A stretch of 64,000 nt of DNA from a bacterium (GTDB taxonomy: Bacteria; Margulisbacteria; Marinamargulisbacteria; GCA-2716485; JAYNIM01): contig JAYNIM010000008.1 of NCBI GenBank assembly GCA_038109055.1, positions 30,866 through 94,865 on the forward strand, written 5' to 3'. The notes under the pieces are model-generated. The model was not told the origin of the DNA, searched no databases, and worked only from the letters and a program-made list of their open reading frames with translations. Position numbers and translations under genes: made by a program. The number at the start of each line of letters is the position of its first letter. The first letter of the stretch is position 1. Shown piece by piece: positions 21,801 through 61,248 of this stretch.

Positions 21801-24800
21801 GGGCCTGCATGGCTTGTTGCATAACACCTTGACTGGAGCGATTTTCAACGCCTGAAAAGTCTCTTATGACCTTATCAACAGATTTGCGCAGGGTGTCTGT
21901 ATACATGTTAATCAACTGAAATAACTTTAAACGTTGAAGATAATCAACATTCATTTTTTCATCCATAAGGGCAAGGTTTTCAAAATTAAGCTGGGAAAAA
22001 TTAAGAGCAAAATCAAACAAAGCACTCCCGTCAGTATCATATTGAGACTCAATAGACCCATCATAAGCACGGACATCATTTTTAGTAGAATCAAAAATGC
22101 CAGTCTTAAACGTTTGTGAAGAGTTCTCAAAACGACCAGAGCGATTAATAAAGTTAGGCTGACCCTCTTCAAGAGGTTCCAAGGAACGAAAGGTGCCAAA
22201 ATTAGGGACATAGGACCCAGAGTTTGAGTCGCTTATAAAATTATTACGAGTAGCACGGCTAGTAAGTGCGGGATAGTAAAAGGGGTCCGCAGAAACAGAG
22301 CGTGAAAAAAGTTCATCATAATTACTATCCCCATTATTGCCATTAATATTAGGTTGAGATAAGGCACGAAGATTGTCCATGCTTTGAGTATGAAGACCGT
22401 TAAAGAAAGGGGTAGAGTCTGAAGTGTGATGATGAAAAAGGCTTAAAAAATCACGGGCGTGATAATGACGCTGCCCCTCATCAGACAAAGTGGCAGATTG
22501 ACCATCAGAAGATATATCTAAATCTCTAAGCGCATAGCTGGGTAAAAACGTATGAGGTGACGAGACCGAATTCAAGCGACTTTGATTAGGGTGGGAGGGT
22601 GAATTATACAAGGGCTCATTGTATTCATCATAAAAATGATGGCCAGGATTACCTTGATAAAGCTCCATATCAAAAGCAGAGCTTTGGGTACGACGCCAAT
22701 CAGCCAAGGTATTCATACGTTCATCAATACGCGGTTGTTCAAAATAGGTTGTACGCAGGTCAGAATAAGGTTGGGAATGAGAAAGGGGGCTTTCTACTAA
22801 ATCTAAAATTAAGTCTTGGGCCTCTAAGCGTTTTTTTGCGCGCATCCAAGGAATGGGTGAAATATACGCGGCAGGCCCTGTATTTAAAATTTGTCTTAGG
22901 GCATAAAGGGATAAGGAAAAGTCAAGCATCGATTCCGAAAAGTCATAATATTTTTTTCTAATAGTTTTATTAACATCGACATTATGTTTAAAGGCAGTAA
23001 TGAGCGTATCTAATTCAGATTTAAAGGTATCTTTAAGCGAGGTTTCAAAGCTAACAAGGGTAGAAAAGGCCTGTTGTAAACCATCGCGAAGTTGATCTAG
23101 AGAACTGAGAGTTAATTGATGCCTCGAACTAGTTTTAGCAAATAATTGTAAAATAGAAGCAGTTGTATTGCTAAGTGTTTCAAGGTAATGCATCCAAATA
23201 TTAAAATACATCTCTAATCCCTGCATACCTCTAAAATGGCTTTGTTCAATCATAGAAAGAGCTAAGGAATTTTTTGTAAAACCACCGCTACCCGTAGGAA
23301 GTAGGAGCGGAAGTTTTTGCGTTTCCTGCCTACCTGGGAAGGCATGCTCCAGATGTGGAATACGATAGTCAAGTAAGGCATTATTGTCATCTCCGGCAAA
23401 CCCTGTACCAGTAGGCAGCGTTTCTATGCGACCAGCAGCCAATCGACGAAGAGCAATACGAGTATCATCCAGATGAAAGTAGGATTTTGCTAAAAAATCT
23501 TGACTGAGCCTATTCTTAGCAGAAGGGGTTCCATCAAAAAACAAAGAATTACGGCGATAATCAAGCTTAGGATACTGACCTAAGAGCAAATCAGTACGCG
23601 CAGCTAGGCTGCCATTGAGACGATTAGTCATCCAAAATTGATCAGGCGTAGCTTCATTAGACCCTTGATAAATAGAGTTGTCAAAAGGCTTATGTCGAGA
23701 ATCATAGGGAGCATTATTATGATTGGCAGCAGAAAAAGAAGGAGAAAAATTAGTTAAGGAGTCAACACCATAAAATCCACCACCACGGCCAAGTGAAACT
23801 CGTGCGAGATCGTCTTCTTGGTCGTATAAAGGTGACCACTTATTTTTAGGAAACAATACGGGGTAGTATTGCAGGAGATAAGGTGTTTGATAACGATAAA
23901 AGGTTTTATGAATATTATATTCTTTTTCATCAAAGGCACGATCAACGATACCAGACCCTACACGCCAAAAAACAGGGAAACTGAATTGCTTGGGAATAGG
24001 GGGAGGCGACCCAGGGGCGGACCATGCCTTACTTGCAACCTCTAGTGCGGTAGCTAAGCCTTGTGCAATGCCAAAATTAGTAATAGCCACAGTTGATTTC
24101 GTTATATTTAATGTCTGTTCAAGATTGTTTAAATAATACTCTTGTTGATGTTTAATTAACGTATTAATCGCCTCTTTATAATCTTTGAACTGATCATTTA
24201 ATTTCTCGAGAGTCTGGTTGGCAAGGGAAAATTCAGCCATAAAGCGGGAGGACATAATTTTATTAACCGTCGTTTTTACCGGACGTGACTGAGCTCCAGC
24301 AGCCTGAGCAATCCCTGCAGCAGCATCCAGTTGATACTGTTGGATAGCGGATAACGAAATAAACAAAAGATTTAAAAAACGTTCATAGGCATTTAATTTA
24401 TCTAAAAGATCCACATACCAAAACGAATTCATATCAATAAAGGGGCTTGTACGAGTTGCCTCAGATGGAACGAGAAGTTGAGAGATACTACCAAGATCAG
24501 TCACAGAACTAATACCATTTTGGATTTGATCTAGAATTGACGCAACAATAGAAGAATCTTCTGAAAGAACATCTTCAGCATCAATATCATTACTTTTACC
24601 AAGAATGTCTTTCGCAGAAGTACCGGGCGTATATATCACATCAGATCGCATAGCCCCACGTTGATGACGCATAAAAAGCCTGCCGCTATCATCTTGGCCT
24701 GCACGGATACGGTCATCACGCATTTGAGGGTGAAAAAGGCGATAGGGTGTCGAAGCGCTTGGGTTGGAGGCAACAGCAGCTAAGTTGCCAGATAAGTCTG

Positions 24801-27800
24801 GTAACTGAAACGAGCCAGTAGAAAAGTCAATATTTTGGGTATCAATACGATCATACTCAAAATTAGCCACAAAACGTTGAATGGGCGCCATATCTGACGA
24901 CGTATTAAAGGGATTAACCGCATCAAGTGCCGTATTAAAGGTGGTTCTAAAAGAATCAAAAGCAGGAAAAAAATGTTCCAGATTAAAGTGTCTTACTTTA
25001 TTGCCCTCAAAATCTTGGGTATAACGGCTGGTGGTAAAATCTTCTTGTGACCAAAAGGCATCATCAGGTTTGCCATCTTGCAAATTGTCCGAACCATACA
25101 AAGGATCTCGTTGCAATCGACCATTTGAATACTGAAAGGTAGACCCAGGATCAGCTAAAAGTTGGTCGCTACGATCCCTTAAAGCATGATCAAGAGACGG
25201 AATAAGTTTATCTGTATAACTATCAGACCTAAGAGTAGAGTTGTCTTGGTAAGAAAGCCGCGATTTTTGGTGAATGCGAGTCATGAAATTCGTGAAATAG
25301 GCATAGATAAAGGTCATGTTTTTTTCGGTATTTTCAGTGACTAATTTTTGTAAATGAACTCGATACTCTGCACGGGTCTTTTCAAAACCAACCCCCAAGC
25401 CATCCAATAGGTCTGTTGTTGCACCATAAATAAAATTGGCAGCCATTTCTGCATAATTGAGATCATCACCTTCATTTTCAAATTCAACACGTGCATATTG
25501 ATCAATTCTTAACTCAGCCAGTTGATGCATGACGTCATTAATAGATTTAACAGACTCAAAGATTTGGTTTCGAAGAGTTGTAAATGTCGTATTTATTTTT
25601 TGTGTTAAAGCAGAAATAGTGTTATTTAAGCCTTGAAGTATTTTTTCTTTTTCAGCGGTATCAGCACGTTTTTGAGGATCTCCAGCTGCTGCAGCTGGAA
25701 TATTGGCGACGGCATCCTCCATAGTCGTAATAAAATCACTGGCTAAGGCAACAACCATTTCGACACGTGTCAATGCATCACGGATCTCAGTTCCAAGTTT
25801 ATCCAATGGATGATCAAAATAGCCGTCAGAGCTAGGCCCAATATCTTTAAAACTAAGCAATTGAATATAATCATCCATCTCATCACTGTCATAGGTGTCA
25901 ACTTCACCAGCGCCAGAAATTTTATCGGTGGTTGAGGGTCCTTTAAAATATTTTAAATTGACATTAAAGAAGGTATAGTTCCCAAAAAGATCCGTTTGTC
26001 CTTTGGATTTAAGATACGCATAATAGGTTTTATCTAAGCGAATCATAAATCGGCTCTTATTATTTTTTAAAATACTATGCAAGCCATGAAGCAAGGCAGA
26101 GCGTTCGTTGGCAGATAATCCCGATGAGGGAAAAATAGCATTCAATCGGGTAGCATCATCATCAAAAATATAATAATGAGAGCTATTATCAACCTTTGTG
26201 ATAAAGCCATGTTGGATAAGATCAGCCATTAAATTAGCTTCGCCTGTTATCCCTAAGTCTTGACGCAACAAAGAAAGTTTTTCTTCTAAATCAACTGATT
26301 TTAACTTCGTGATATAATCTCCGCCACTAGAGTCAGGGTCAGGATTATCTGCGGAGGATGTTTGAAGAGCGGAAGCAGGTGGAGTAAGCGCCGCCAGAGC
26401 ATCATTAAGCGCAGCTAATTCTTGAACCAATTGCCTAAATTGGGTTATTTCAGTGATTAATGTTTGTGCATTCGCCGGTAATTGAGCAAAAGACGCCAAG
26501 TCGAACATATCAGGGTGACTCGATAAAAAGTGAGTCATGTCACTCACAAGCGCAGTTAGATTTGTTTGCCACGTTTGAGCACTCTCTAAATCATTAACGG
26601 TTGAACCTGAGTTTTCAAAGGAGTTTAAAGATGGAAGCGCATAAAAAGTACCATTATTAAAGCGTATCCCTCTGGGGCTATCTTGATAATCAACAAATTG
26701 ATAAATCCCTTGTTGACTCTCACGACTAACAACACTCAAAACACTTGAAATAAGCGTCTGAATACTGGTATTTGAGCTTTCAATAGCAGCCTCTTTATCA
26801 CGAATTTCTGTAAGTTTTGCTTGATAAGCCGTCAAATCAGTTGTGGATGAAGAAGCGACCGCGGCTGTCGAGGGATCTTCATCTGCATCAATATACTGTT
26901 TATATAAAAGATATTCTGTATAACTGACAAAGTCATACATATACGAGCGGCTATTTCCTTTAGTTTCAATATGAGGCATTCGAAAAACCTCGGCCCAGTC
27001 TTTATTAAAAACAGCGGCCTCTACATTAGCGCCCGCTTGAAAAAGATGGTCGTGTAAACTAAATTGCGGGTCATTAGGATCGTAATGATAGAGAGAACTA
27101 ATAGGGGTGGTATCTTGAAGTCGATTGGGAGAGTGGCCAGCGAGTATAGAGGCATTAGGGGTAGCCCCAAAATTAACAGATTCACCAGCAAAGCCTAGGC
27201 CATATGCAGTATGAAAGTTTGCCGCAATTTCTTGACGTTGTTCAAAATGCTGGTCATTAAACACAAAAACAGTATCAAAATCATTGTCAGAGCGAGGCTC
27301 TAAGCCCTTGCCCAAACTAGGATCTAGGACATACTGGGCCTCAGGAAGGTTTAAAAACACCAACATATGGCCCTGAGGACCATCAGACGTTTGTGCGTAA
27401 CCTGCAGCAAGTTGAACCATGCGACGACTTTGGTCGAAGGAAATCCCTTTATAATCCTCTAAAACATGCAACAGTAACGAGGCCTGAACAATAGCTAAAT
27501 CTTCACAGTCCCCCTGTTGTGTCGCAAACGTTTCACCGATAGATTGCCAATGATCTGTTGAGCCAAGTGCATGAGTCGAGGTCTCAGAGACATAGCGAAA
27601 GCGTTTTTGAACGTAATTAAGCAATTTAACAGAGAGTTCTTCAATCGACATCCCAGCACTAAGCTGGCCACTCTCAAAAAGCTGCCGAACAGTGTCCCGA
27701 ATATGCCCATCCTGACTATTAACCAAATATTGCTGTTTACGAAAGGCCCAAGCCCGAGGGGATAAGGTTGTTTCAAACGAGGATTTAAGAGAGTCCCAAG

Positions 27801-28227
27801 GAGCAAGGTCACGCTGTTGTTGGATTGTCATCTGTTCAAGACAGGCAAGAAGTCGGTTTTGGGTGGCAATATCAATATCGAGTGAAGAAAGAGAATCCGC
27901 CTGAGAAACAAAAAAACGTTTGAGGGCAGCAAGGGTAGTAGGCGGTAAAGGGTCTGCCGAGGCCAGAGTTGTTAAGGCTGTTTTAATGCCATCACGATTC
28001 ATGTCATCATCAAAAGACAAGGCCTCAAGTTGCGAGGCCAAAGACTTTAAGGTATTGGACAAGTCAGGAGCAAGATCATAGTGTTTTGGCGCTAAGGTAT
28101 CAGATGAAGGGGTGGTCTGAGGAAAAGGAATAGGGGAAACAGGACGATTATTCTGATCGGGTGTAGACAACTCAAGCGAGTCGTCTTCAGGTTGCGCGAT
28201 AAACGATGAGTCAATATGTAATGCCAT
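12802..28227 (-). CDS. Giant 5141-aa protein: transglutaminase-like cysteine protease domain (BTLCP/LapG-like), repeated helical modules and a Leu-rich helical C-terminus
   Basis: Uninterrupted 15.4-kb ORF. DHWQ...GDCEDLAI (C241), GHMLV (H287) and YVLDP (D302). No obvious Sec signal peptide. Confidence 0.85.
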   Translation of the reverse strand: MALHIDSSFIAQPEDDSLELSTPDQNNRPVSPIPFPQTTPSSDTLAPKHYDLAPDLSNTLKSLASQLEALSFDDDMNRDGIKTALTTLASADPLPPTTLAALKRFFVSQADSLSSLDIDIATQNRLLACLEQMTIQQQRDLAPWDSLKSSFETTLSPRAWAFRKQQYLVNSQDGHIRDTVRQLFESGQLSAGMSIEELSVKLLNYVQKRFRYVSETSTHALGSTDHWQSIGETFATQQGDCEDLAIVQASLLLHVLEDYKGISFDQSRRMVQLAAGYAQTSDGPQGHMLVFLNLPEAQYVLDPSLGKGLEPRSDNDFDTVFVFNDQHFEQRQEIAANFHTAYGLGFAGESVNFGATPNASILAGHSPNRLQDTTPISSLYHYDPNDPQFSLHDHLFQAGANVEAAVFNKDWAEVFRMPHIETKGNSRSYMYDFVSYTEYLLYKQYIDADEDPSTAAVASSSTTDLTAYQAKLTEIRDKEAAIESSNTSIQTLISSVLSVVSRESQQGIYQFVDYQDSPRGIRFNNGTFYALPSLNSFENSGSTVNDLESAQTWQTNLTALVSDMTHFLSSHPDMFDLASFAQLPANAQTLITEITQFRQLVQELAALNDALAALTPPASALQTSSADNPDPDSSGGDYITKLKSVDLEEKLSLLRQDLGITGEANLMADLIQHGFITKVDNSSHYYIFDDDATRLNAIFPSSGLSANERSALLHGLHSILKNNKSRFMIRLDKTYYAYLKSKGQTDLFGNYTFFNVNLKYFKGPSTTDKISGAGEVDTYDSDEMDDYIQLLSFKDIGPSSDGYFDHPLDKLGTEIRDALTRVEMVVALASDFITTMEDAVANIPAAAAGDPQKRADTAEKEKILQGLNNTISALTQKINTTFTTLRNQIFESVKSINDVMHQLAELRIDQYARVEFENEGDDLNYAEMAANFIYGATTDLLDGLGVGFEKTRAEYRVHLQKLVTENTEKNMTFIYAYFTNFMTRIHQKSRLSYQDNSTLRSDSYTDKLIPSLDHALRDRSDQLLADPGSTFQYSNGRLQRDPLYGSDNLQDGKPDDAFWSQEDFTTSRYTQDFEGNKVRHFNLEHFFPAFDSFRTTFNTALDAVNPFNTSSDMAPIQRFVANFEYDRIDTQNIDFSTGSFQLPDLSGNLAAVASNPSASTPYRLFHPQMRDDRIRAGQDDSGRLFMRHQRGAMRSDVIYTPGTSAKDILGKSNDIDAEDVLSEDSSIVASILDQIQNGISSVTDLGSISQLLVPSEATRTSPFIDMNSFWYVDLLDKLNAYERFLNLLFISLSAIQQYQLDAAAGIAQAAGAQSRPVKTTVNKIMSSRFMAEFSLANQTLEKLNDQFKDYKEAINTLIKHQQEYYLNNLEQTLNITKSTVAITNFGIAQGLATALEVASKAWSAPGSPPPIPKQFSFPVFWRVGSGIVDRAFDEKEYNIHKTFYRYQTPYLLQYYPVLFPKNKWSPLYDQEDDLARVSLGRGGGFYGVDSLTNFSPSFSAANHNNAPYDSRHKPFDNSIYQGSNEATPDQFWMTNRLNGSLAARTDLLLGQYPKLDYRRNSLFFDGTPSAKNRLSQDFLAKSYFHLDDTRIALRRLAAGRIETLPTGTGFAGDDNNALLDYRIPHLEHAFPGRQETQKLPLLLPTGSGGFTKNSLALSMIEQSHFRGMQGLEMYFNIWMHYLETLSNTTASILQLFAKTSSRHQLTLSSLDQLRDGLQQAFSTLVSFETSLKDTFKSELDTLITAFKHNVDVNKTIRKKYYDFSESMLDFSLSLYALRQILNTGPAAYISPIPWMRAKKRLEAQDLILDLVESPLSHSQPYSDLRTTYFEQPRIDERMNTLADWRRTQSSAFDMELYQGNPGHHFYDEYNEPLYNSPSHPNQSRLNSVSSPHTFLPSYALRDLDISSDGQSATLSDEGQRHYHARDFLSLFHHHTSDSTPFFNGLHTQSMDNLRALSQPNINGNNGDSNYDELFSRSVSADPFYYPALTSRATRNNFISDSNSGSYVPNFGTFRSLEPLEEGQPNFINRSGRFENSSQTFKTGIFDSTKNDVRAYDGSIESQYDTDGSALFDFALNFSQLNFENLALMDEKMNVDYLQRLKLFQLINMYTDTLRKSVDKVIRDFSGVENRSSQGVMQQAMQALDAYSQVQQALSSAFVEELSAQVQLYNDYLTTKTTLTLETAVDTVYLAAISSYVIASAVGATAETKTSMKDKLEKLISAQRVVKGIKTVATAVVGLYRFFSLRDAASSKHSNLLTDFFPVDDTLAASTDDVSDTDDKKKNAALNREKDDGLRASNIVKNVGGSTVETKLNDAQLIKTSSMGTTIINRGALIKKRLELKKQKNRATMVMDIFDSAMQTLASASDVAGQGAVIGNAFSMSKKGMGAFQSLLSRKLDRLTAKLEQLKESRDRAVNDIRSIVFEFVTKMGVLGLKAFGGRVMSSSQGKKATAALSKKWLRIKFKLKFKNNLFSSNNSARKLKFIFNKLVFPQGFSENTGFLQLFIARILGNLAKSEGALQSSFDSEDMFQDGSDLGDAGGISGDQLPTADMENLMFEADLMKGNVQIRKELLKEQKALQGMFSTDISLSLQHFMQKVFERFLLKRYLNKTSPTSTTAAVFVNTLRAIPFLLLDKKKKKLRRLDIMHDKNLNNILFADGQEDDWNKGETPFINPLTRALAQKMGVDGKSALMTPQEVKEHAKKLANLDPINDLDKMPSDQKALFHPSDAELEEKFAEEWEKKTNPEKASEIRLEFQDLNTSQQNKFADDATRYGMAADDFRQNKPNTDIPLLDSIYKEVFIKREKEKEKENAVNAVKKRHKKKRMLLNGILAAASLPVSVPGEVLSYISSKINPKPDSTTAKVGDVTSHIIGGLGDILSSPFIESRLSRDAKDLSFKVGQKWSNSTIGRTFTNMHNWLVTDIPTNKPFNLLRRVLLSLSLPVSLIKLIFPHNWVYLTAFLDVLVNNSSHTKDSQALLKDGFVGLTGMTRHAWPMTDPNPTDPQDILKEAVRTEKDDRRHILQHGSAYEPSAEVGDMAGIATFANIKNIKTTVSDHFDDTDGQNKAPTSQELRVLMALGDVPSTTTSDDIKQDAAEGLSQIFDKLGLTAAIQSHKSKKEIHGILRYGLKIARDATDPGKREALLSGGTKLSDEQKQGLTSILPDKNAEDTLMAQLVGFIDPKTSAAEVRKHAVQLAAKHANANSTTASIKDSIAQFETAIHGFGKDSKGKGGFSKGLTGLKERREMVQKLTQSYDAYRDYADSSSSKYFRSKEARQILGDVLQTGSAHTFEDDDGSLVSKLKELSGDSDEGGLETTLEELLKLKSDDSTIFKKLREGLSQGSFNKNDVANFLSGNTTSQNLVQILGSTGLSNPLDSTLSNNIANVLNALGATDEPSFDSDTLSFEDIGLAYSMLSLNKSQLNWQMGAGGTSSINPKKALKLLHSSDSKQGLALYDDHIEALRKKKVGIDFEGTKKGFTFRTRKAKDPIASQLFDQLTQARLEVADEDDRENPAYLSRLPSEQTTHLTDHPSSFLKSLQRRADDSVNASVLAREFIGYMWGQMQYASGDPGSPQTIIEEKRALNALISLKKDFAILDKQTKERILEGVKNLNDQGGGGILRDETKRFLGHVLRGDSLAFNADIAQLSGFEDFDTEDEAYEVLRKKDKDEVDLFKRDQLVLRMEPYKKQAPDSPNPAGNAGGLAVAGPQNTQGPGTMAVAGPQNTQGPGTMAVAGSQNTQGPGTMAVAGSQTQGPVALAALGPQTTPTSAQAVSTDGSAPVPGAPVAESMAFAVENLAQEYAEKFAESDDAKDPAVASKIVSHAQAYIKKFQKHFSSLDKAESKRIEKLIQKYIKEPKDPGDVAINTFAIAASLDSIVANPSSPHILPQFDINHFMEQDEATATLRTAYTQFLSPTLRSKLSHLSDNLDSIDDDDPNTPHPKAQQRESHSSSEDTEDEDLLFDDRVDLAPLQLAPSSLSEDLVAALVDLSFASLSEDAMACFESVYALVVKALLSRFNDMGRPKALLALESLTPDSPPGTLQRQLIEDCFSLSCVDPSLASLFSLLEVAYVVSQWPQQSALLHVYLLYVTPLSQLQVWLQGHSSVTLSGSLRFDLTAYHSQRSLQVLQRLYTLAGDHAFVSDALSQSDTDFLALLSQPLTELAQRPFWLAACHAMAVFYEASDPCLTNRRLQVSLQRCYAFQEDLFGTGLHTVITARLDTQPSLLRLWQASGCWLAFLGSLSELEFSTLTSLLPEIDAALLKQLYTHCRTRSQLESVLEQPWSVFQDKKHLARIPTFLMTCPELLVKGLYYHPRYFVQFCLACAHFPHHKLYQDLFDLLPSSITDQLQPLLRHAVAILSCLHTPTPDHWLMMILARRMDQRHRLTMLWALWLLDSTLFTSVFTSFHGRISASLFHYLRLDTGQPLAASSCRSLFKSLKKEGYINASSYPTARLHEGVLQQHAPLQSLAASFGLHLRSLCQRLHLLRDQQERWVSLFSQHPPDGLHLLPAFSRFRHALTRMTGYFSSQTHDQFNRIDALALSGLDTVSTPTLGLSHLKELLSLLRPYEARFRLSVDKDVANVLTRRPCFTFAYVFQLWTLFDHLLRQHFMQQELGHTLESIWRSLSKQLLLFALGSHTIASDSEALSQLLSTLFSYDSKGFQHPFHWAFSRGTALQRSALFTMLLAIPSISLPDLLRCIGFVDPSKPYPAAIAAALPLDDAQLLLAYCDSGQGHLPAHCLLPALQSYYTSQPTAIGFLKTALFLNQAQPGLSVRDWQLFPVLLSIDTETLLGFLVLLDPTLRQTCLRFVQQKRHDISDLDTHLSQTLQDCHHGRCHTSGPLLLAQLCFLLRFTQHTDKAVVFASACQKLPAEHCSSLLDLILQDPRHSQALFLLFDSQEGLNTCFSQALCKTASSLPAKSWFMAFRSPSLKKALLDMALLNPQYAHLPALVIEQSKTASIPLDDVPELYLALGCQWASVTESVPFSSAELPPSPSPDDNSFIDTSTWMLRFSRSQGLSITQKKLFHHALRDPDFVSAFVRHLDQMLDTKVPEALIILQRLLSQGHFKHQSFFHTLWQSLLEIDPVLSSTFQATLTQHMTQPRSQQQPQDFQRLLTLLLPFLDSASKHQIKTYYVGRSSKKKAPQKNTV
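16981..17138 (-). repeat. In-frame 42-bp tandem repeat (about 3.7 copies, one unit 39 bp) encoding AVAGPQNTQGPGTM
   Basis: aggaccctgag recurs at 16981, 17020, 17062 and 17104 on the + strand. Confidence 0.95.
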
Positions 28228-28318: not shown

Positions 28319-28882
28319 TTAAGAAAGATTGAGCTTTTTTTCTTTATCCGCCTGAAAGGTATTAATACATGCATCGCCAAAATAGTGACGTAGCTCTTTT
28401 TCATGAGGCAGACTCAAACACGTCAATAAATAGGGCTGAATTTTACTAAAACCACGCGCGTTAATACAGTACCAAAAACGCGAGTGTATAGCGGGAGGAT
28501 GCTGCTCTAGGGCGGCAAGTAAGACGGGGGAAACATCATAGGGGCTATGGATCAGTCCTGCTTGAATCAAGGCAATATAGTCAGCCTTTTCACTACGGGC
28601 TAGTAAGGTAACTAAAAAATTCTGAGGGGTATAATGATGAACAGTCGCCAAGGTTGCAATACACAAGGTCTGAGCCAAGGTTGGAAAGGAATCAAAACGA
28701 GCACAGAGCTCAGGCAGTACAGAGGCCTGTTTATGACACAATATCTGAAGCGCCAAGCTAAGTTCTGCAGCAGAAGCATCTGATTGCAAGGTCTCAAACA
28801 AAAACTGGATGTCAGGCGCTTCTAACAAAAAACCATCCAAACAGCGTTCCTCAAGCAACAGTAAACGGGTTAATATGTCCAT
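28319..28882 (-). CDS. Hypothetical helical (HEAT-repeat-like) protein
   Basis: 187 aa of Leu/Ala-rich amphipathic helices; TGCTATACT extended -10 lies 10 nt upstream. Confidence 0.65.
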   Translation of the reverse strand: MDILTRLLLLEERCLDGFLLEAPDIQFLFETLQSDASAAELSLALQILCHKQASVLPELCARFDSFPTLAQTLCIATLATVHHYTPQNFLVTLLARSEKADYIALIQAGLIHSPYDVSPVLLAALEQHPPAIHSRFWYCINARGFSKIQPYLLTCLSLPHEKELRHYFGDACINTFQADKEKKLNLS

Positions 28883-41348: not shown

Positions 41349-42212
41349 CTACAATTTATTAATAAATCCTGATAATGTTTTACCCAAATCATCCATGACA
41401 CCCTGAACAGCAGTTGTTCCACGATTTAAGACATTAAGGTCTAAATTAATACGGGCAATATCCACGTTCGAAGATTCAAACTGAGCACCTAAAACTTTCC
41501 CATAGCGCGCATTTGTACCAGAAATTTTAGTATCAGAATAGCCAAATCCTGTATTCTCTCCAGAAGCAGCGGTAGCTGAAAAAGACGCACCATCAGAGCT
41601 ACCAAGACCTTGTTTATTTTGAAAAGTGGTTAATGCCAAGCGATATAATGGTGTTGCAGATTCTTCAGGGTTTTCTTTGGCACGTTCATAATTTGAGGCA
41701 AGAATACCGCCATCTAAAAATCCAATATCAACAGTATCATTCAATTGAATGGGGACAAGTTCAGTACTAGTTTGTCCTTTTTCATCAATTTTATAGCCAA
41801 AAACCACTCGGCCAAACATGTCAACCATATAACCTGAGTGAGGTTGTTTACGAAAACGCCCATTGCGTGTGTACACATAAGAGATAGCCCCACCATACTG
41901 AACTTGACTAACATCAGCGATAACAAAGAACCCCTCACCATTGATAGCCGCATCAAATTGGGTTCCGGTAACAATCGATCCTTGACCAAAGTCACGCGTT
42001 ACAGCACCTAAAGAAACACTAGAACCCAAATTCACCGGGTTTTGGGATTCTGTCCCACTGGTTAAGGCACGTTCATACATAGTAGTAAACACAGGAAATG
42101 AATACTTAAAGCCAGGGGTATTGTACTGATGCGAATTGGTAATGGCCACACGCAAGGCCCCTTCCATCGCAAAATACGCATTTTTAATATTAATATATAG
42201 ATCTAACATCAA
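41349..42212 (-). CDS. Flagellar rod/hook family protein (FlgG/FlgF/short FlgE-like) with divergent termini
   Basis: NTPGFK, RDFGQGSI, DAAINGEGFF, YTRNGRF, LALTTFQNKQGL and ESSNVD. Confidence 0.88.
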   Translation of the reverse strand: MMLDLYINIKNAYFAMEGALRVAITNSHQYNTPGFKYSFPVFTTMYERALTSGTESQNPVNLGSSVSLGAVTRDFGQGSIVTGTQFDAAINGEGFFVIADVSQVQYGGAISYVYTRNGRFRKQPHSGYMVDMFGRVVFGYKIDEKGQTSTELVPIQLNDTVDIGFLDGGILASNYERAKENPEESATPLYRLALTTFQNKQGLGSSDGASFSATAASGENTGFGYSDTKISGTNARYGKVLGAQFESSNVDIARINLDLNVLNRGTTAVQGVMDDLGKTLSGFINKL

Positions 42213-43999
42213 GCAGCCTCTGAGATTTGTTTTTCCTCTAATGACAAAGATTTAAACATGGAAGGGACAATCGCTGTTGAAATCGAACTTTCTTTTTTTA
42301 AACGCGTGAGTATCTTGTGTAATTTACGAGACTCATTTTTCAAGTGAGAGACATCAGGTTGTGCCTGAGACTGAACGTATAACTTTAAATACGCATCCTG
42401 AAGTACCGGGAAAACGCGACGATTAGCCTCATCTCGAATCATTTTTAAGTCCATCTTGCTTATAGTATAACCCAAGTGAGCCAATTGTTTGAGTAATTGG
42501 GCAATTTCAGACTGAATAAACTTAAAAACATCGCCAGCCAAGTCAGGTAACAAGGCCCTTTCTTCAAAATAATGACGCAAGCGAGACAATAACGAAAAGA
42601 TAGCCGCACGTTTAGCGTGCTCAGCCAAGGTATTCCATCGCTCTTCAGAAGAGGCAGCTTTTTTATGTTTGTGAAGATCATAGCGAAGTTTGATTTGCTT
42701 AAATAAAGAGGGGGTTGTGTATAGGCTATAAAATAACTGTCGAACTTGATTATCAGGATCACTACCTTCAAACATTGTGACGGTCGTAGGAGGTGATTTT
42801 TTTTTGCGTTGCCAATCACAATCAATCAATCCCAACGAATAAGGAACCTGAAAGAGACGTAAACCATGCAAATCAAGTTTGTGATTGAGACTTTGGGCAT
42901 AAGCTTGCGCTGGAAACTGTGAATTTTGTATCAAGGCATTAAAGCGATCCATAGCTGCCGCCAAAAATTTAGGGTCTAAACTATTCAGGCGAATATCAAT
43001 TAAGACCCTATCAAGTTCACTTGCGATAAAACTCCGTAATTCCGATTTTACATCATCTCGTAAGAATTGAAGCTCAAATTCGTGACTAGGATCTTGCTTT
43101 CCACTACGTTTAATCATCTGTCGAAAGACTTCGTATTGGTTCAAGGCATCCTGAGTAATAATGCCTTTCTTCATCTCATTAGCATCATAATACATAAGCG
43201 ATTCAAGAAAATGTTGTTTTAATTGTTTTTTTAAGTTTTTAGCCATAAAGGCCTTAACCCCCTGTTCCATTCCTTGTAAAAGCTTAGGCGAAAGACCATT
43301 TTTCTCTAAGGTTGATCGAGTATGCCTTATGGATTCTTTTTGATTTTTGTTATTTTCTAAGAGTGACTTAGCGAAAAGAACACCATAGCGGTCTAACTGA
43401 GGCTGTAGGTGTTTCGCTGAGCTGAGGGAAGGTGATGTCGAAACAGTGTTTTTTCGAAGCCGATCTGCACGTTTTGATTGTTTATGAAAATCCTGGGGGG
43501 AAAGAAGGCCTAATCCAAGTTTACTCTGCTGCTCGTGTTTATGTTGGGGAGCCACACGAGTCTTAACACGCATCTTCTGTTGCATTTTTTTGGAAATATG
43601 GGGCTGATCTATAAAAGGCTGAGAGATGGTGTCTTTGCGAGAGAGATCATTGGCATGTTGTTTGAGTTGTTGCAACATGCGTTTATTAAATGTTTGAGTT
43701 TGATATTGTTGAAATTTTTCGGCTATCCCTCGTGAAAGATCAGCAATGCCTACTTTTCGGTTGAGCAAATTAAGTGCCGAAGTCGGCGCTGTAGAACTGC
43801 TTTTTTGAGGGGTCGTTTCTTTGCCTTTGTGTTGAAACTCTTCTTTAGGGCGATGTTCACTATGCTCACCGGAGGTTGAAAGAAGTCCCTCGATGTATTT
43901 AGACTGACTTTTAGCTGTTTTATCATAGCTAATAAGTGTAAGATCGCTTTCTTCAAAAATAGAGTCTGAGTGTTCAGAAATACCCGCAACATCCATCAC
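42209..43999 (-). CDS. Hypothetical basic helical protein (596 aa)
   Basis: Long ORF with ATGA overlaps at both ends; low-complexity N-terminus. Confidence 0.8.
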   Translation of the reverse strand: MMDVAGISEHSDSIFEESDLTLISYDKTAKSQSKYIEGLLSTSGEHSEHRPKEEFQHKGKETTPQKSSSTAPTSALNLLNRKVGIADLSRGIAEKFQQYQTQTFNKRMLQQLKQHANDLSRKDTISQPFIDQPHISKKMQQKMRVKTRVAPQHKHEQQSKLGLGLLSPQDFHKQSKRADRLRKNTVSTSPSLSSAKHLQPQLDRYGVLFAKSLLENNKNQKESIRHTRSTLEKNGLSPKLLQGMEQGVKAFMAKNLKKQLKQHFLESLMYYDANEMKKGIITQDALNQYEVFRQMIKRSGKQDPSHEFELQFLRDDVKSELRSFIASELDRVLIDIRLNSLDPKFLAAAMDRFNALIQNSQFPAQAYAQSLNHKLDLHGLRLFQVPYSLGLIDCDWQRKKKSPPTTVTMFEGSDPDNQVRQLFYSLYTTPSLFKQIKLRYDLHKHKKAASSEERWNTLAEHAKRAAIFSLLSRLRHYFEERALLPDLAGDVFKFIQSEIAQLLKQLAHLGYTISKMDLKMIRDEANRRVFPVLQDAYLKLYVQSQAQPDVSHLKNESRKLHKILTRLKKESSISTAIVPSMFKSLSLEEKQISEAA

Positions 44000-44199
44000 G
44001 CGGACTCCTTATACATAGAAGAAAAGGACTGTGTGCTAAGTTGAGTTTCAATCAATTGTTTGTCTTTTTCTGAATAAGGGGTTTGCAAGCGTGTTAATAA
44101 GCGTTGATAACACAACAAACGCCCATCTATTTTTTGGATATAGGCCCGAAGCTGACGAAGTTTAAGTTGCTTTTCTTTCTTTTCATTATGTATCGTCAT
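43996..44199 (-). CDS. Small basic coiled-coil protein (67 aa)
   Basis: Fills the operon gap and overlaps the next start (ATGA). Confidence 0.6.
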   Translation of the reverse strand: MTIHNEKKEKQLKLRQLRAYIQKIDGRLLCYQRLLTRLQTPYSEKDKQLIETQLSTQSFSSMYKESA

Positions 44200-44214
44200 C
44201 TGAAACTACCTGCC

Positions 44215-45036
44215 CTACAAATAGGAGCCATCCTCTTTAATATTAACGTGATGACCTGCATTTCCTTCCCACAAATTACCAATAAAGTACTCTATATTTT
44301 TACATTCATCTTCAAATTCATCTCTAATTTTTTTAGATTGAGTAATTTTTTCCTCCAATAATCGTGATTTAGTCCAATACCCGCCATCTAATTTTTGCAT
44401 TTGTTGGAGCAATTTTTGTTGTAATAGCATCATTTTTGCACGAACAGGTCGAGTAAGTTTCTTTTTACCATACAACAGTTCAGCCAATTCTAAATTGTAG
44501 ATATTTTCTGCCATAAGGTGTATGTTTTCTTCAAAAACATCTTGTTTTGCCTGCTGTTTTAAGGCGGCTAAGTCCTGGTTGTTTAAGCCAGAAAAATGCA
44601 GCATTTTATTTAAAACAGTAGATTTAAATCCGGCAAAATCCGATAAGAAATCGTTATGTGAATAATATTGTTTAAGGGTATCAAGGTAATCCTGGGTAAG
44701 TTGTTCTTTTCGTTGTTCAGGACGAGTGTCATAACCAATTAGACGCCATAAGGTATCCTGTTGAAAAAATTTTCTATCAGGGTCTTTAACAGAGACTGTT
44801 TCTTCGGAAACATGATCCTGAAGAGATAAATCAACACGATCTTCAAAGAGTTCTTTTTCTTTTTGAGCAACCTGAAAGGCTTGAACCCCCTGCTCAATCG
44901 TTTTAGTATCAGACACACGTTCTTTTTGTTTTAACAATGCCTGCTGTTTTGCTTTGATTTCCTCTTTAATCTTTTTATGTTGAGGATGCTCTTCAAAAAC
45001 AGAGGGGTCAGTGGCAAAAGCAAGAGATGGGTTCAT
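44215..45036 (-). CDS. Hypothetical coiled-coil protein (273 aa)
   Basis: ATGA overlap with the upstream gene; GAGG SD; K/E/Q-rich helices. Confidence 0.8.
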   Translation of the reverse strand: MNPSLAFATDPSVFEEHPQHKKIKEEIKAKQQALLKQKERVSDTKTIEQGVQAFQVAQKEKELFEDRVDLSLQDHVSEETVSVKDPDRKFFQQDTLWRLIGYDTRPEQRKEQLTQDYLDTLKQYYSHNDFLSDFAGFKSTVLNKMLHFSGLNNQDLAALKQQAKQDVFEENIHLMAENIYNLELAELLYGKKKLTRPVRAKMMLLQQKLLQQMQKLDGGYWTKSRLLEEKITQSKKIRDEFEDECKNIEYFIGNLWEGNAGHHVNIKEDGSYL

Positions 45037-47663
45037 TTCTTTTTACCTCGACTTCTCATCATGAGTTGTTTGATTTCCTGTTTTTTAGCACGATTGGCTT
45101 CTTTATTTTTCTTGGAAATTTCTTGCAGTTGGGCCTGTTGCTGATCTTTTTTATCCTTGTTACGTTTTTTTCGGTTTTCAGCAACCTGTTTATAGTATGC
45201 TTGGGCTGATTCTTTGTTTTTTTGCTTAACTTCTGCAATATATTCTTTTTTGACAAGCTCTTTTTTCTCTTTTTCTTCTTTCATTTGTTGATCATGTTCA
45301 TCTTTAGATAGGGAGCTATAGATAAGATTTTCAAAGTGCTTAATAAAAATAAATTCTTCGAGATCTTCTCGGAATTGATCCGTTGCGGTTTGCATGGTCT
45401 CAGTTTCAAAGTAACGGGGAGTCGCCACGTAGTCGACAGTCACACGATACATATCACTAGAGGGTTTGATAATACGTTTAGTTGCAGGGTCCCATAACCC
45501 TTGGTTGTCGACTAACACTTCGATAGGGTGTTCAACAATTTTAAGGCCCTGATGGCTCAAAACCTTGCTGTCTTCTGTCATAAACGCAGTGACCAAAGGT
45601 TCTAAGTGGGCTAATTGACGGCGAACCTGGGTATGAAAAGCAACAAGGTCTTCCGAGTTCTCACTATAAATGCGTAAGGGTTCATGTTCTTTTTTGACAT
45701 ATAGTTTGCTATTTTCATCATACTCCATCCAAGAAGCAAGTGGAGAAACGTCCATATAGAACCCCTGTTCACTTTCTTGAATATGAGGAGCCCCAGTATA
45801 TGTATCGTGTTGAGTATCAAACCCAGTCATAGACTTAAACATATCCATAAGGATACTGTAGGCCTTATGAAGGTTATCTCGTTTTTCATCAAAGGTATCC
45901 CCTTTTTGAGGCAAAGAGAGAATATCAAGAAAATGAAAGGAATCTCCATAGGCACTTTCAATTTGAATATCATAACGTTGATTTTGTTTAGACGATGAAT
46001 CTAAAAGATCAAAATTTACCTCCTTAGAACCATAAACAGCTTCTAATAAGGCATTTTTTACCAAGAGGTCGTCGTTTTGATCAGGAAAAATTGGGCGACT
46101 TAAATCAGGGAGATTAGAGGGTTGAACCGTCCCATCATTTGAAAGAATGCCTCGTTCTATTAACTTAGAAAAAATATGAGCTCCCACAACAATATCAGAG
46201 GCATCTTTATGTAAGTGACTGGTGACCACTTTGAACGACCCTTGAAGAGGAGAGACGACAACTTTATTATAATGCATCAACGCTTTAGCTAAACCTTGCT
46301 CTTTAAAGTCTAATAAAACCCCTGCATCTGTATAAGGATTGATGCTCTGGTCAAAATACTGACGGCGAAGCCACTGTTGATTATGAAAGACCATTTGTAA
46401 TGGTTGAAAGTCCAATGGGTTAACAGTCTGCCAATCAACCGTATCAAAAAATGCAGTTACCTGAGCGATAGGTCCTTCATAGAGGAAAGAATCAGAAGGC
46501 GGCTCAAGAGGACGATAGCGAGTTTTGAGAGTTTCAACACGTTGACTGATGGTCACTAACAAGGCTTCAGCTTCTTCAGTTTTGTCTGCTTGATTATATA
46601 AATAATATAAATCACCCAGAGTAGAATCATCCGGGGCTCCATCTATTTGGTACAATGCCATAGAAATTTCCTTCTCAGTTAATCGTTGTGTATCAATATC
46701 ATCTAATAGATTAGCTAGACGTTTGCTATGTATGAGCACCTGTTCAGCATTAAGATCATGAGAAGAGTCTCGGAGAGCCCCATCGATCTGAGAGATCTCG
46801 GAAACACTGCCGAAGAGGTGGCGGGTCGTTTTTTCGAGATTTTTGATATTAGAACGGTGGCGATGCAAATACGAGTAAAATTGTTCGGCGTCCCAATCTT
46901 GGAATTCACGATCAAGCAACACTTGGTGCATGTTTTCATAAATTGGGACCGTTTGACTCTTATTATCTAAATAAATATCGGGAACGTCTGTCATCTGGAC
47001 ATCTTGTTTAACAATGAGATCCAAAGAACGTTGTACATTATCATAATGTGCCTGACCTAATATATCCAAGGTATTGGTATTCTGTGCAAAGTAATAATCT
47101 TGATAAATATCTTTATTGAGATAGTCATGTAAGCGTTCACCTTTCAACGAAAAGTTTCGTTCATTAACAGGTCCATGAAGTTGGATGTCATGGGGGGATC
47201 CATAACTAATCACATCGTATTCAAATTCATAAGATGGTTTTTTAGAACTAGGGAGGGCAAATCGAGCATAAAGTTCTTTCACAAGCACATCAGGGTCTTT
47301 CCCAGCTGCCATACCTGCTTCAAATTCAGCATCAACAAGATCTTTATATTCAAAATAATTGCGATAAAAATCATAGCTTAGGCTATCCACATTTTCAAAA
47401 TTAAGTTTTTTACCAGAACGAGCCCCGTCCATAAGTTCTGCATGACGCAGTTCTTCAAAGGGAATCTGTTGAGAAATATTATTAAGGGAAGACCCCATCC
47501 AATAAATAAACGAAGACCGTTGGTCAGAGTCTGGTAACGGACCTTGAGAGGTAATCAGACGATCTTGGTAGACATCCAAGATCATAGGGAAACGATTCCC
47601 AAACTCAACATTTTTGAGTCGCCTCTGCATTTCTTGAGGGTCCCAATGATTAAAGATGGACAT
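45033..47663 (-). CDS. Hypothetical protein (876 aa), acidic Tyr-rich body with a C-terminal K/Q/E coiled coil
   Basis: Long ORF with an AGGAG SD. Confidence 0.82.
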   Translation of the reverse strand: MSIFNHWDPQEMQRRLKNVEFGNRFPMILDVYQDRLITSQGPLPDSDQRSSFIYWMGSSLNNISQQIPFEELRHAELMDGARSGKKLNFENVDSLSYDFYRNYFEYKDLVDAEFEAGMAAGKDPDVLVKELYARFALPSSKKPSYEFEYDVISYGSPHDIQLHGPVNERNFSLKGERLHDYLNKDIYQDYYFAQNTNTLDILGQAHYDNVQRSLDLIVKQDVQMTDVPDIYLDNKSQTVPIYENMHQVLLDREFQDWDAEQFYSYLHRHRSNIKNLEKTTRHLFGSVSEISQIDGALRDSSHDLNAEQVLIHSKRLANLLDDIDTQRLTEKEISMALYQIDGAPDDSTLGDLYYLYNQADKTEEAEALLVTISQRVETLKTRYRPLEPPSDSFLYEGPIAQVTAFFDTVDWQTVNPLDFQPLQMVFHNQQWLRRQYFDQSINPYTDAGVLLDFKEQGLAKALMHYNKVVVSPLQGSFKVVTSHLHKDASDIVVGAHIFSKLIERGILSNDGTVQPSNLPDLSRPIFPDQNDDLLVKNALLEAVYGSKEVNFDLLDSSSKQNQRYDIQIESAYGDSFHFLDILSLPQKGDTFDEKRDNLHKAYSILMDMFKSMTGFDTQHDTYTGAPHIQESEQGFYMDVSPLASWMEYDENSKLYVKKEHEPLRIYSENSEDLVAFHTQVRRQLAHLEPLVTAFMTEDSKVLSHQGLKIVEHPIEVLVDNQGLWDPATKRIIKPSSDMYRVTVDYVATPRYFETETMQTATDQFREDLEEFIFIKHFENLIYSSLSKDEHDQQMKEEKEKKELVKKEYIAEVKQKNKESAQAYYKQVAENRKKRNKDKKDQQQAQLQEISKKNKEANRAKKQEIKQLMMRSRGKKK

Positions 47664-47686
47664 GAGCGTCTCCTATTGTATGTATA

Positions 47687-48205
47687 TTATCCACCACTCA
47701 TACCAGCAGATAATTTCCGTTCTATTTTTAACCCCATTTCTGGTAAGCCTTCAGTAATGTTATAGGTCGTATTGATCATCTGCATAATGACATTCATTTG
47801 CATCAGGCCCCCCATACTGGACCAATCTTCGATAACACCCCAGACAGGGTGGTCAATACGACGGTCTGTGGGGTCATTAATTTCATCAATGAGATCCATC
47901 ATACTATCAAAGTAGTTTGAAACAGCTTCAGATTTTTCTTGTGCAAAATCATAATCTCTTGTAATGGCGTATTTGAAGTCAATCCATTGTGTTAAAGCAG
48001 GCGATGTAGAACCTTCATTTTCGGCATTTGTTAACTGAATTCGAAGGTCAAATTCAAAGCTATCCGGGGTACCCGTAAATGTTTCATCAAATACAACATT
48101 GACATTAAGATTAGGCTGAGAAAGCTCTGTAACAATTTCAGCCGTATGTACCTCAGCAGGTGAACTGGGAGGCGTGATAGATGTGTTTGATGGAATAAGT
48201 GCCAT
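47687..48205 (-). CDS. Hypothetical protein (172 aa) with an inner-rod/needle-like C-terminal helix
   Basis: AAGGGG SD. The C-terminal about 45 aa align without gaps to the upstream 136-aa protein. The functional label is inference. Confidence 0.7.
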   Translation of the reverse strand: MALIPSNTSITPPSSPAEVHTAEIVTELSQPNLNVNVVFDETFTGTPDSFEFDLRIQLTNAENEGSTSPALTQWIDFKYAITRDYDFAQEKSEAVSNYFDSMMDLIDEINDPTDRRIDHPVWGVIEDWSSMGGLMQMNVIMQMINTTYNITEGLPEMGLKIERKLSAGMSGG

Positions 48206-48218
48206 AATAAAACCCCTT

Positions 48219-48245
48219 CAAGGCTGCGAGAGTTACGCAGCCTTG
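48219..48245 (-). other. Intercistronic stem-loop
   Basis: Perfect 10-bp stem CAAGGCTGCG/CGCAGCCTTG with a 7-nt loop and no immediate U-tract on the minus strand. Confidence 0.8.
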
Positions 48246-48257
48246 TAATTAAATAAT

Positions 48258-48668
48258 TTATCTTCCTTTCGCAGCAGTACCAATCTCGCCAGCAATTGAA
48301 GTTGCCTTCGATGTCGTTGCCTCGATAATACCTTTCTTAACTTGAAATTTCATATTGATTTCTTGCAAGGTAACACTTGTTTCCAAGAGTCCACCCATTG
48401 TACTTGTATTTGAACTAGCTGCCGAAGTACCTTGGGCAGTACCAGTACCAGCATTTTGATTGGTCCAAGCCGCAATTTCAAAAGAAACCGCCTTTGTCCA
48501 CTCATCCCCTGTCGCTCTGGCTTCACCTTTAATTTCTTCGTAGTTAGCCAGACTTGTAACCTGGTCTTGACCGTTTACAATGAAATTTTGGTTAAATGAC
48601 TGATCTAATTCGCCTCCCGCATCACCAAAAAGAATTTCATCCATATTTTGTCCAAAATATTCAGCCAT
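48258..48668 (-). CDS. Hypothetical protein (136 aa), filament/needle-subunit-like
   Basis: Perfect AGGAGG SD. G/A/T/S/N-rich and lacking Cys, His and Pro. The functional label is inference. Confidence 0.75.
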   Translation of the reverse strand: MAEYFGQNMDEILFGDAGGELDQSFNQNFIVNGQDQVTSLANYEEIKGEARATGDEWTKAVSFEIAAWTNQNAGTGTAQGTSAASSNTSTMGGLLETSVTLQEINMKFQVKKGIIEATTSKATSIAGEIGTAAKGR

Positions 48669-48731
48669 AAAAAACCTCCTGTATTAATGTAGTCATAATA
48701 ATCCTCCTCATAAATGTTGTTCTCATATAAG

Positions 48732-48759
48732 GAATCGATATATTTAGAAAATAAATTGC
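48732..48759 (-). promoter_or_regulatory. Putative sigma28-like promoter of the orphan operon
   Basis: GCAA-N16-ATCGATTC, with the inverted repeat ATTGAAT-N2-ATTCAAT (48760-48775) immediately upstream. Confidence 0.4.
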
Positions 48760-48849
48760 ATTGAATTTATTCAATTTTAAAAAGACAGGGATTAAACAGA
48801 ATAAAAAGGGGGCTTTTTATGGCAGATACGTAGGTGAAGGAGCCGTAAA

Positions 48850-59521: not shown

Positions 59522-61165
59522 GTGAACCAGGTATTCATTAAAATAGTGATCTGCTTTTATCTCTCAACACAGTTGTTAACAGCTGGTAATGATGAAGTCG
59601 CCTTTCAACGCGCTGATCAGTCCTTTTTAAGTGAAGAACGTCAGCAGCAAGCACTTAAACGCCAGTATCAACAGGCTTATGACCTTCCAGCTCCCTTAGA
59701 GTTTAGTCAAAAAGAAGTAAAAATAGAGGCAGAATCATGGAAAGAAATGACCCTTAAAAAGGTACAGGTCGAAGGAGCCAACATGATCTCCAAGCGCCAA
59801 CAGCGCCGCCTGAATGCCGCTTATTTAAACAGAGTCGTCAACGCAAAGGATCTGCAAATGTTACAAAAAGACTACGCAGCAGCAATCATGACAAAAGGCT
59901 ATATCACAACCCGTGTATGGCTGCTATCACAGGATATAACAAAGGGGATATTACGACTAAAGGTCATCCCCGGTCGAATAACACATATCGAGATACGCAA
60001 CAAAAAGGGCTGGGCTTTGTCGCAGTGTTTAGTGATCAAAAAAGGCCAACTCTTGAATATTCGAGATCTCGAAACCTCGCTGGCAAATCTCAATCGCTTA
60101 AGTAGTCAGTCCTATCAGTCACAGTTGATAGCAGACCCAGCCGTTCCTGGTGGAACCATCGTGGTCTTAGAGAATCAGCCCAAACACCCTGTGTCGGGCA
60201 TCGTGTCCTATAGCAATATGAAAAAAAAAGATCTATACCCGGATAATTTACTCTTAAGTATGGATCAGCTATTGGGGCTACAGGAGCAATGGCAGTTATC
60301 TTTGGGTCAAAACACCACAGATGTTACCCAGTATATGTTGTCTGGTCTTACCCTGTCGTTGCCGGTGAAACGCTGGGTATTGGGGCTGGGGTTTCGTAAA
60401 TTCAAACATAGTTATTTACTCAAAAGTATGGGGCAGCGCTATTTTCATTATTTTAATACCTATCAACAGCAGTCGATAGATCTAAACTGGCGCTGCTTTC
60501 ATTGGCCAAAAGCGGCCTTAGATATTAAGGTGGCCTATAAACACAAAGAGCAAACCCGCCATATCGAAAACACTTTTTTGATCCATCAACACCAACGGCT
60601 TGAGATTGCAGAGCTATCGGCCGTTACCCGATTAACACACAGACTGGGAACCTGGCACATAACTCCTTTAATTCGCTGGGGACAGACCCGTTTTCCCTCA
60701 TTGGCCACTGATCAAGAAGCAGAGGCCCAGTTTACAGTTGGGCAGTTAAGCCTTGGATATCAGTATCATCGACGAGTAGGGCGGATACCTCTCGCATTCG
60801 AAGTTCAGTATCAGGGCTTTTATGCCGAAAAAAGCATGCTCGGAACTGAACAATTTTCCTTGGGTGACCAATATAGCCTGCGCGGCTTTGATGGGTTTTT
60901 GCAAGGAGATAAAGGCTATAGTGGAGGCCTGTCACTACGTGCCATATACCATAATTGGTTAACTCCCAAATTATCCCTAGAGGGGGGCAAGGTAAGCAGT
61001 TATGATGAGAACTCACAGACAGGAACAGTGCTGAGTTGGGCGGTCGAAAATCAGATGAGTTGGCAGTATTTATCCGCCACACTAGGCTATAGTCGGGCCC
61101 TAAAGGTGTCGGAGGGTTTGAAAAAGCAGGGGCAGGTATGGGGACAAGTAAAGGTGCAATTTTAA
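59522..61165 (+). CDS. TpsB (ShlB/FhaC/HecB) outer-membrane transporter
   Basis: Signal peptide, POTRA (GYITTRV, LNIRDLE), barrel with SLRGF and a terminal Phe; upstream of a TpsA. Confidence 0.9.
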   Translation: MNQVFIKIVICFYLSTQLLTAGNDEVAFQRADQSFLSEERQQQALKRQYQQAYDLPAPLEFSQKEVKIEAESWKEMTLKKVQVEGANMISKRQQRRLNAAYLNRVVNAKDLQMLQKDYAAAIMTKGYITTRVWLLSQDITKGILRLKVIPGRITHIEIRNKKGWALSQCLVIKKGQLLNIRDLETSLANLNRLSSQSYQSQLIADPAVPGGTIVVLENQPKHPVSGIVSYSNMKKKDLYPDNLLLSMDQLLGLQEQWQLSLGQNTTDVTQYMLSGLTLSLPVKRWVLGLGFRKFKHSYLLKSMGQRYFHYFNTYQQQSIDLNWRCFHWPKAALDIKVAYKHKEQTRHIENTFLIHQHQRLEIAELSAVTRLTHRLGTWHITPLIRWGQTRFPSLATDQEAEAQFTVGQLSLGYQYHRRVGRIPLAFEVQYQGFYAEKSMLGTEQFSLGDQYSLRGFDGFLQGDKGYSGGLSLRAIYHNWLTPKLSLEGGKVSSYDENSQTGTVLSWAVENQMSWQYLSATLGYSRALKVSEGLKKQGQVWGQVKVQF

Positions 61166-61189
61166 GTAAGGTATACACCTTCCAGAAAG

Positions 61190-61219: not shown

Positions 61220-61248
61220 AAAAAAAATTGGTCTAGGAGCTTAATAAA

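Follow-up and report, generated by a model that had tools for sequence, protein, structure and literature searches.

A conserved seven-gene operon of Margulisbacteria that likely encodes external, exported components of a second, flagellin-less type III system

The DNA analyzed here, called the window, is a 64,000-nucleotide stretch of contig JAYNIM010000008.1 (positions 30,866 to 94,865; G000:C8:30866-94865 in our own labeling) from the Marinamargulisbacteria assembly GCA_038109055.1, a genome of 1.82 Mb that is 93% complete. Between ribD and hisE on the minus strand lie seven co-oriented genes, designated A to G, that the original prediction had taken for an undescribed hybrid appendage in which a rod-hook protein is joined to needle-like subunits; their coordinates and lengths in amino acids (aa) were confirmed. 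Our results indicate that the likely products of this operon are external, exported components of a second type III system, one that has a flagellar basal body and lacks flagellin. The genes, and one RNA element between the first two, are the following.

48258..48668, minus strand: gene A, 136 aa, predicted major needle-like subunit (from the SctF ranking of its family profile, the leave-one-out test, and the Atlas search)
48219..48245, minus strand: RNA stem-loop of 10 bp between A and B, called from its folding energy
47687..48205, minus strand: gene B, 172 aa, A paralogue, predicted minor or basal needle subunit or adapter
45033..47663, minus strand: gene C, 876 aa, possible tip or junction protein (a guess)
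44215..45036, minus strand: gene D, 273 aa, all-helical and conserved
43996..44199, minus strand: gene E, 67 aa, coiled-coil partner of D
42209..43999, minus strand: gene F, 596 aa (595 counted from ATG), phylum-wide marker of the system
41349..42212, minus strand: gene G, 287 aa, short rod-hook protein of the FlgE/F/G family

As had been noted, only the last gene is recognizable. Gene G matched TIGR03506 (FlgEFG) with 81.2 bits, above the cut-off of 70.25, and gave its top scores with FlgE models, yet it fell below all of the FlgE, FlgF, and FlgG equivalog cut-offs; nothing over cut-off was obtained for A to F in Pfam or NCBIfam searches. The genes are tightly packed, and of three ATGA overlaps described earlier the one at the 876/273 junction was found, whereas the 67/596 junction (GTGATG) and the 596/287 junction (TTGATG) show TGATG coupling, provided that ATG is the start. 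None of the seven proteins contains a 19-residue window above 1.03 on the Kyte-Doolittle scale, in agreement with the reported lack of transmembrane helices (a dedicated signal-peptide predictor was not run). The A and B proteins are probably paralogues, judged from a BLASTP alignment with 11 of 28 identities and from family profiles that aligned over 73-74 columns (probability 48-56%, E ~1e-4; 7.7% with shallower profiles), which gives moderate support to the earlier claim. At the stem-loop between them, a 63-nucleotide stretch had a folding energy of -18.6 kcal/mol (z -3.25, equaled by 0 of 200 shuffles), and we infer that the stem-loop raises A relative to the downstream genes.

Inspection by eye of the window gene list revealed no further flagellar gene, as predicted, and the remaining machine genes are on other contigs of the same genome, where a full set of type III gate and ATPase genes was found. 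A first cluster comprises flhA-flhB-fliR-fliQ-fliP-fliO-fliN and a FliM/N-like gene; a second holds fliK, a short FlhB-C gene, flgF, flgG, flgA, flgH, flgI, a sigma factor, flgC, fliE, fliF, and fliG, with a gene at the flgB position that had no Pfam match; and a third is fliH-fliI-fliJ. A fourth paralogue of the FlgE/F/G family stands alone at G000:C1:261928-262737. The three secretins sit, by eye, among pilus/type II-like or unassigned genes, none of them in the flagellar clusters. The suggestion that flagellin, stator, and cap would be missing or reduced was borne out in part: no flagellin was found in this 93%-complete genome, no FlgK exceeded the cut-off (FlgL and FliD were not searched with models of their own), and FlgD was not found, being present in 1 of the 61 phylum genomes searched, but three MotB-plug genes occur here. 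These stator-like loci (G000:C2:122379-127259, C1:38152-42006, and C2:149192-152051) have MotA-like and FliF/FliG/FliM-like neighbors by eye and lie apart from the export clusters; they are possibly stand-alone motor modules. The FliG of the second cluster is 270 aa long and has no FliG_C match, compared with 331 aa for E. coli FliG, and the genes that follow fliF in three relatives (G060, G055, and G057) encode 159-182 aa.

Margulisbacteria are the sister group of Cyanobacteria, and the distribution of the system was counted in 109 genomes of the phylum, each at least 80% complete; these counts are tallies rather than tests because kin are not independent. Gene F was present in 106 of the 109 (72 of 72 that were of high quality) and FlhA in 105, compared with flagellin in 13; the B profile was recovered in 62, likely too low a number because B is short and divergent. 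Of 75 genomes with a completeness of 90% or more, 29 yielded a MotB plug and 46 did not, the latter including the single-contig genomes G060 and G081. Flagellated relatives carry the second-system gene set beside a separate motile flagellum: ten of their genomes gave two long FlhA matches, with fragments in G064 and G069, and in G057 the second set is accompanied by a canonical fliK-flgD-flgE(885 aa)-motAB cluster. In that genome E and F adjoin the fliPQR-flhB cluster of the motile flagellum, away from B (L094:4004-8282). Lone flagellin-N matches outside the flagellated families (G117:C4:62270-62632, in a genome with one FlhA, and G017:C64:1277-1687) may represent contamination or a relic.

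Gene order was kept across the phylum, as the original prediction had proposed to check. Of 38 loci around G homologues, 26 have D upstream of G with F between; the others are incomplete, have G alone with A to F elsewhere, or, in five loci from other lineages, have the G homologue preceding fliM/fliN/fliO/fliP-like genes. A hand count of 40 loci around F in other classes placed D in 36 and a small B-like match upstream in 29, the usual order there being a giant gene, two small genes, A, B, C, D, E, a glycosyltransferase, and F. The glycosyltransferase lies within the operon in many relatives, two examples were confirmed as GT2-TPR (L090:9443-10495 and L063:10597-11793), and the enzyme may modify the tube proposed below.

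Quick IQ-TREE trees of FlhA and SctV (60 rows and 23 rows, unrooted) were built with few outgroups, namely, 4-5 FlhA and 6-7 SctV sequences, all but one proteobacterial, with long SctV branches. The second-system FlhA formed one clade with a Shimodaira-Hasegawa-like approximate likelihood ratio test (SH-aLRT) value of 100, apart from both motile FlhA and SctV; the motile FlhA of the phylum grouped with outside flagellar FlhA (SH-aLRT 98-99) and SctV formed a third group. Forcing the two Margulisbacteria FlhA groups together was disfavored, with p 0.042 in the approximately unbiased (AU) test. The ATPase tree had the same shape with a weak support of 75 (AU p 0.09), its outgroup branches measured 4-10 changes per column so that no rooting was possible, and FliI searches returned close relatives only and no outgroups. 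The trees show an old, separate system, not its ancestry.

The two small proteins were compared with known needle subunits. The A family spans ~73-140 aa, with up to four small tandem genes in relatives, and the B family ~100-130 aa, with 112 representatives at E<=0.001; tandem expansions of small hairpin genes include six B-like matches in G077 (C40) and three A copies each at L077 and L067. In the AlphaFold2 (AF2) model of the B member L055:9961-10287, the helices form a hairpin whose turn carries a short beta-hairpin (predicted local distance difference test [pLDDT] score, 78.5). Profiles of 48 A and 69 B sequences were ranked against 12 SctF, 9 SctI, and 374 decoys of 60-140 aa; the median SctF was beaten by 0.4% (A) and 0.7% (B) of the decoys, block shuffles did as well as the real profile in 0 of 30 (A) and 1 of 30 (B) cases, and SctF was the best of 14 type III secretion system (T3SS) profiles for both. 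In a leave-one-out test the window A protein scored above all decoys (10.1 versus 7.2 bits). An Atlas language-model search with L163:11921-12145, a 74-aa protein at the A position, had HrpF/SctF clusters in the first three places (score, 0.89-0.90; 186-191 shared features; recognition 3004). As candidates for SctI, the small proteins did not stand out from controls, the SctI medians of 9% and 11% falling within the shuffled range with an hhalign probability of 2%. The B model had no PDB match at E<=0.001, and neither SctF nor SctI was among its best 50 VIA matches; its best structural Z of 7.5 was to generic hairpins, and WXG100 proteins and FlgE D0 tied at Z 6.6-7.0. PDB matches of A/B to a coronavirus spike heptad and to EsxB were rejected as short generic helix alignments, and C-terminal A/B-like hairpins on larger proteins gave no convincing match in the loci examined, which is a weak test. 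On these sequence comparisons, A and B are best described as needle-like exported hairpins of the FliE/SctF type, which may descend from SctF or from a FliE duplicate; their polymerization into a hollow helical needle is predicted.

The length of C varies widely across the phylum (~180-2000 aa) and its C-terminal tail is charged. D is conserved and is fused to E in some genomes (L065, L074, L084, L085, L159-L161, and L163) and split at a different point in others; AF2 modeled a natural D-E fusion as all-helical (pLDDT 81), with no clear PDB match by Foldseek or VIA. The D-E and B models do not match unrelated known folds; such a match had been named as able to overturn the prediction. D/E was tried as a split SctW gatekeeper (YopN/TyeA-like), but Foldseek and VIA gave no SctW among the matches listed for the model and hhalign gave 0.1%, and this candidate was set aside as unlikely. 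F had no Pfam, PDB-sequence, or usable Atlas match. Word-index searches found only 3 proteins for F and 14 for D, and among the named D and FliI matches those with a stated lineage belong to Margulisbacteria or WOR-1, except for one FliI match labeled Actinobacteria.

Same-class relatives have a gene called R and a giant gene in head-to-head orientation to the operon, and both have homologues in the window.

28319..28882, minus strand: gene R, 187 aa, homologue of the operon-facing gene of relatives, possible chaperone (a guess)
12802..28227, minus strand: giant open reading frame (ORF), 5141 aa, candidate exported substrate, with an N-terminal region common to the giants of relatives

R was matched at E 1.4e-9 by a profile that also contained three unrelated DapF-like rows. 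Only the N-terminal region of the giant ORF, at about aa 140-410, is common to the giants that follow R in relatives (BLASTP E 1e-7 to 1e-25 against 11 of them), and no Pfam family exceeded the cut-off in it. Giants beside the operon in other classes contain hydrophobic stretches of 26-62 residues that resemble those of pore-formers (5 of 6 tested), whereas of three same-class giants one has no such stretch and two have short or weak ones; we treat these as two groups and claim no homology between them. Giant proteins with kinase, ankyrin, or ubiquitin-hydrolase domains are numerous in the genome. The loci L010-L011 and L070 (G000:C1:527710-535686 and C3:105829-107661) encode candidate exported substrates, large proteins in which ubiquitin hydrolase, NADAR, or ankyrin domains occur.

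Published data on one relative bear on the same genes. According to the available part of PMC6784892, Ruthmannia eludens is a marinamargulisbacterium that lives in Trichoplax vacuoles, transmission electron microscopy shows thin tubes joining its cell to the host vacuole membrane, and the authors found no canonical secretion system. The expression table, as far as that source provides it, has 21 flagellar rows with no flagellin among them. Genes peg.764-769, numbered after the gene labeled FlgE, fit the order F-E-D-C-B-A by position only; peg.768 and peg.769 average ~20,500 and ~21,600 transcripts per million (TPM), rows 12 and 10 of the sorted table, compared with 5,554 TPM for GroEL and 175 TPM for the FlgE-like gene, a difference of ~120-fold from the latter. 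Because the match is by position only and peg.769 carries a porin note, we regard this expression as a lead.

With moderate confidence we favor a type III system that is built on a flagellar basal body, is not motile, and has an outer tube made from A and B on G. The gate would export rod proteins, for which the P and L rings, taking the role of a secretin, would be the passage across the wall and the outer membrane; G may form a short hook-like or distal-rod segment; B would be an adapter on which A polymerizes as a tube, with FliK as the length ruler; and C, D/E, and F may be tip, chaperone, or switch parts. The giant proteins would be late substrates, possibly pore-formers, and the machine, which would not rotate, would contact a host or neighbor cell or deliver proteins to it. 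Delivery is the least supported step, and there we lean slightly toward doubt. As to the hybrid appendage originally proposed, the export gate, the failure to find flagellin, FlgD, and FlgK, and the conserved order agree with it, whereas the MotB-plug genes of this genome, the control-level SctI scores, and the FliE scores close to those of SctF do not.

A number of results weigh against this interpretation. The tests behind the needle-like subunits (AF2 hairpin, SctF ranking, and Atlas) are weak but convergent, and FliE scores nearly the same as SctF (8.6 versus 10.9 bits with the A profile; 7.9-9.0 versus 8.6 with the B profile). The hhalign probability of A/B against SctF is 4-10%, the Pfam SctF and SctI models exceeded their cut-offs in 0 of 21 A and 0 of 26 B members, the needle Pfam model is not among the 25 families listed for 128 B members, and no needle sequence in the PDB was matched by A or B members. 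Reversed profiles still place SctF high (median, 1.7% for A and 2.7% for B), so that much of the SctF signal is composition and hairpin shape. For Atlas, the member that looked most like a needle subunit, L163:11921-12145, was selected by hand; its link to the family consists of its position and of a leave-one-out score equal to that of the best decoy, and its neighbor L162 was not recovered in that test. No match to a translocon, tip, or gatekeeper was obtained in a T3SS comparison that used shallow profiles. G is apart from A to F in four loci, Ruthmannia has motA-motB-fliG, and the three MotB-plug genes of the present genome lie beside FliG/FliF-like genes.

The alternative that survives best keeps the same tube and makes it only a tether or adhesion pilus, or a conduit to the medium, without injection. 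It would account for the lack of any translocon or tip homologue among our matches, for the GT2-TPR glycosyltransferase in the operon of many relatives, as occurs with surface filaments, and for the retention of the system in groundwater and planktonic lineages without a known host, and the Ruthmannia tubes look fimbria-like in the available part of PMC6784892. The hydrophobic stretches of the other-class giants and the many giants with kinase, ankyrin, and ubiquitin-hydrolase domains speak against it, and we consider it unlikely. A rotating flagellum whose filament is A/B or another unrecognized flagellin replacement would fit the retained rod, L/P rings, and hook-family gene and the MotB-plug loci with their FliG/FliF-like neighbors, but it is very improbable given the 46 of 75 genomes in which no MotB plug was found, two of them single-contig (a stator-less genome with the operon was seen), the short FliG, the failure to find FlgD in 60 of 61 genomes, and the separate complete flagellum retained by motile relatives. 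Equally improbable is a basal body serving as a bare exporter of the kind ascribed to Buchnera, with A to F as lineage markers or nonstructural soluble substrates: A to F have no significant match to any T3SS part and G is apart from them in other classes, but they co-occur with the second-system FlhA clade, are co-transcribed with G across most of the class, include A/B that rank as needle-like, and show very high expression at the matching Ruthmannia positions.

The non-motile system with an A/B tube can also be set against known machines. It shares with the flagellum the export gate, ATPase complex, FliF, FliE, FlgC, rod, FlgA/H/I rings, FliK, a sigma-28-like factor, and FlgE/F/G genes; it differs in that flagellin, FlgD, and FlgK were not found here, FliG is short, no stator was found in most of the phylum, and it has its own FlhA clade that coexists with a true flagellum. 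Like injectisomes it has small subunits encoded in tandem and predicted to be helical hairpins, with profiles that place SctF first, large candidate substrates, and, in most phylum genomes, no filament or motor, whereas it keeps the rod and L/P rings, has its secretins outside the flagellar clusters, gave no significant SctF, SctI, SctW, SctA, or SctE homologue in the profile comparison, and has an FlhA outside the SctV clade. The system thus probably belongs with neither motile flagella nor injectisomes and would work most like the latter. Buchnera has filament-less basal bodies without flagellin that are thought to export proteins, a reduced ordinary flagellum in one symbiont lineage; the present system, in contrast, is phylum-wide, with an FlhA clade to itself and at least six gene families that are new. 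The Myxococcales "intermediate" T3SS, as described in the available part of PMC3459982, is likewise flagellum-derived, non-motile, and secretin-less, but it lacks FlgBCDEK, FliEG, FlgH, and SctF, whereas rod, FliE, FlgH, and needle-like subunits are present here.

Flagella are defined by FliE/FlgB/FlgC in the same part of PMC3459982, where rod genes identify a system as flagellar and an ancestor is proposed that had an SctF structure and no secretin. Because type III systems are divided into flagella and injectisomes and rod genes mark the former, the Margulisbacteria system would be filed as motility. In our unrooted FlhA trees the second-system clade and SctV lie on one side and all motile FlhA sampled on the other (SH-aLRT 98-99); that the system is a sister lineage of all injectisomes, pre-secretin, with an SctF-type needle and still with flagellar rod and L/P rings, is nevertheless rather doubtful. 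If the favored interpretation is true, a third form of type III system is phylum-wide, many "flagellated" calls in the phylum are wrong, and uncultured cells, Ruthmannia included, likely contact other cells via a needle. It would stand midway between flagella and the needles with which pathogens inject, and would either record the origin of the needle or show that the needle arose twice, a matter testable on two 90-110-aa proteins and one imageable symbiont. Literature searches, which did not extend to subscription papers such as the Termititenax genome paper, found no description of this system. PMC6349859, in the part available, has no flagellar term in its main text and one supplement passage that calls the group motile by polar flagella (12 of 29 supplement files were searched, and the other 17 may bear on motility), and PMC13277936 does not name the phylum in the available part of its main text.

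Two further regions of the window may be mentioned. An ORF of 1602 aa at 28946-33754 joins SecA-DEAD-like and protein kinase domains and is effector-like, and positions 59522-64000 contain, by eye, a two-partner secretion-like pair whose large partner runs past the end of the window.

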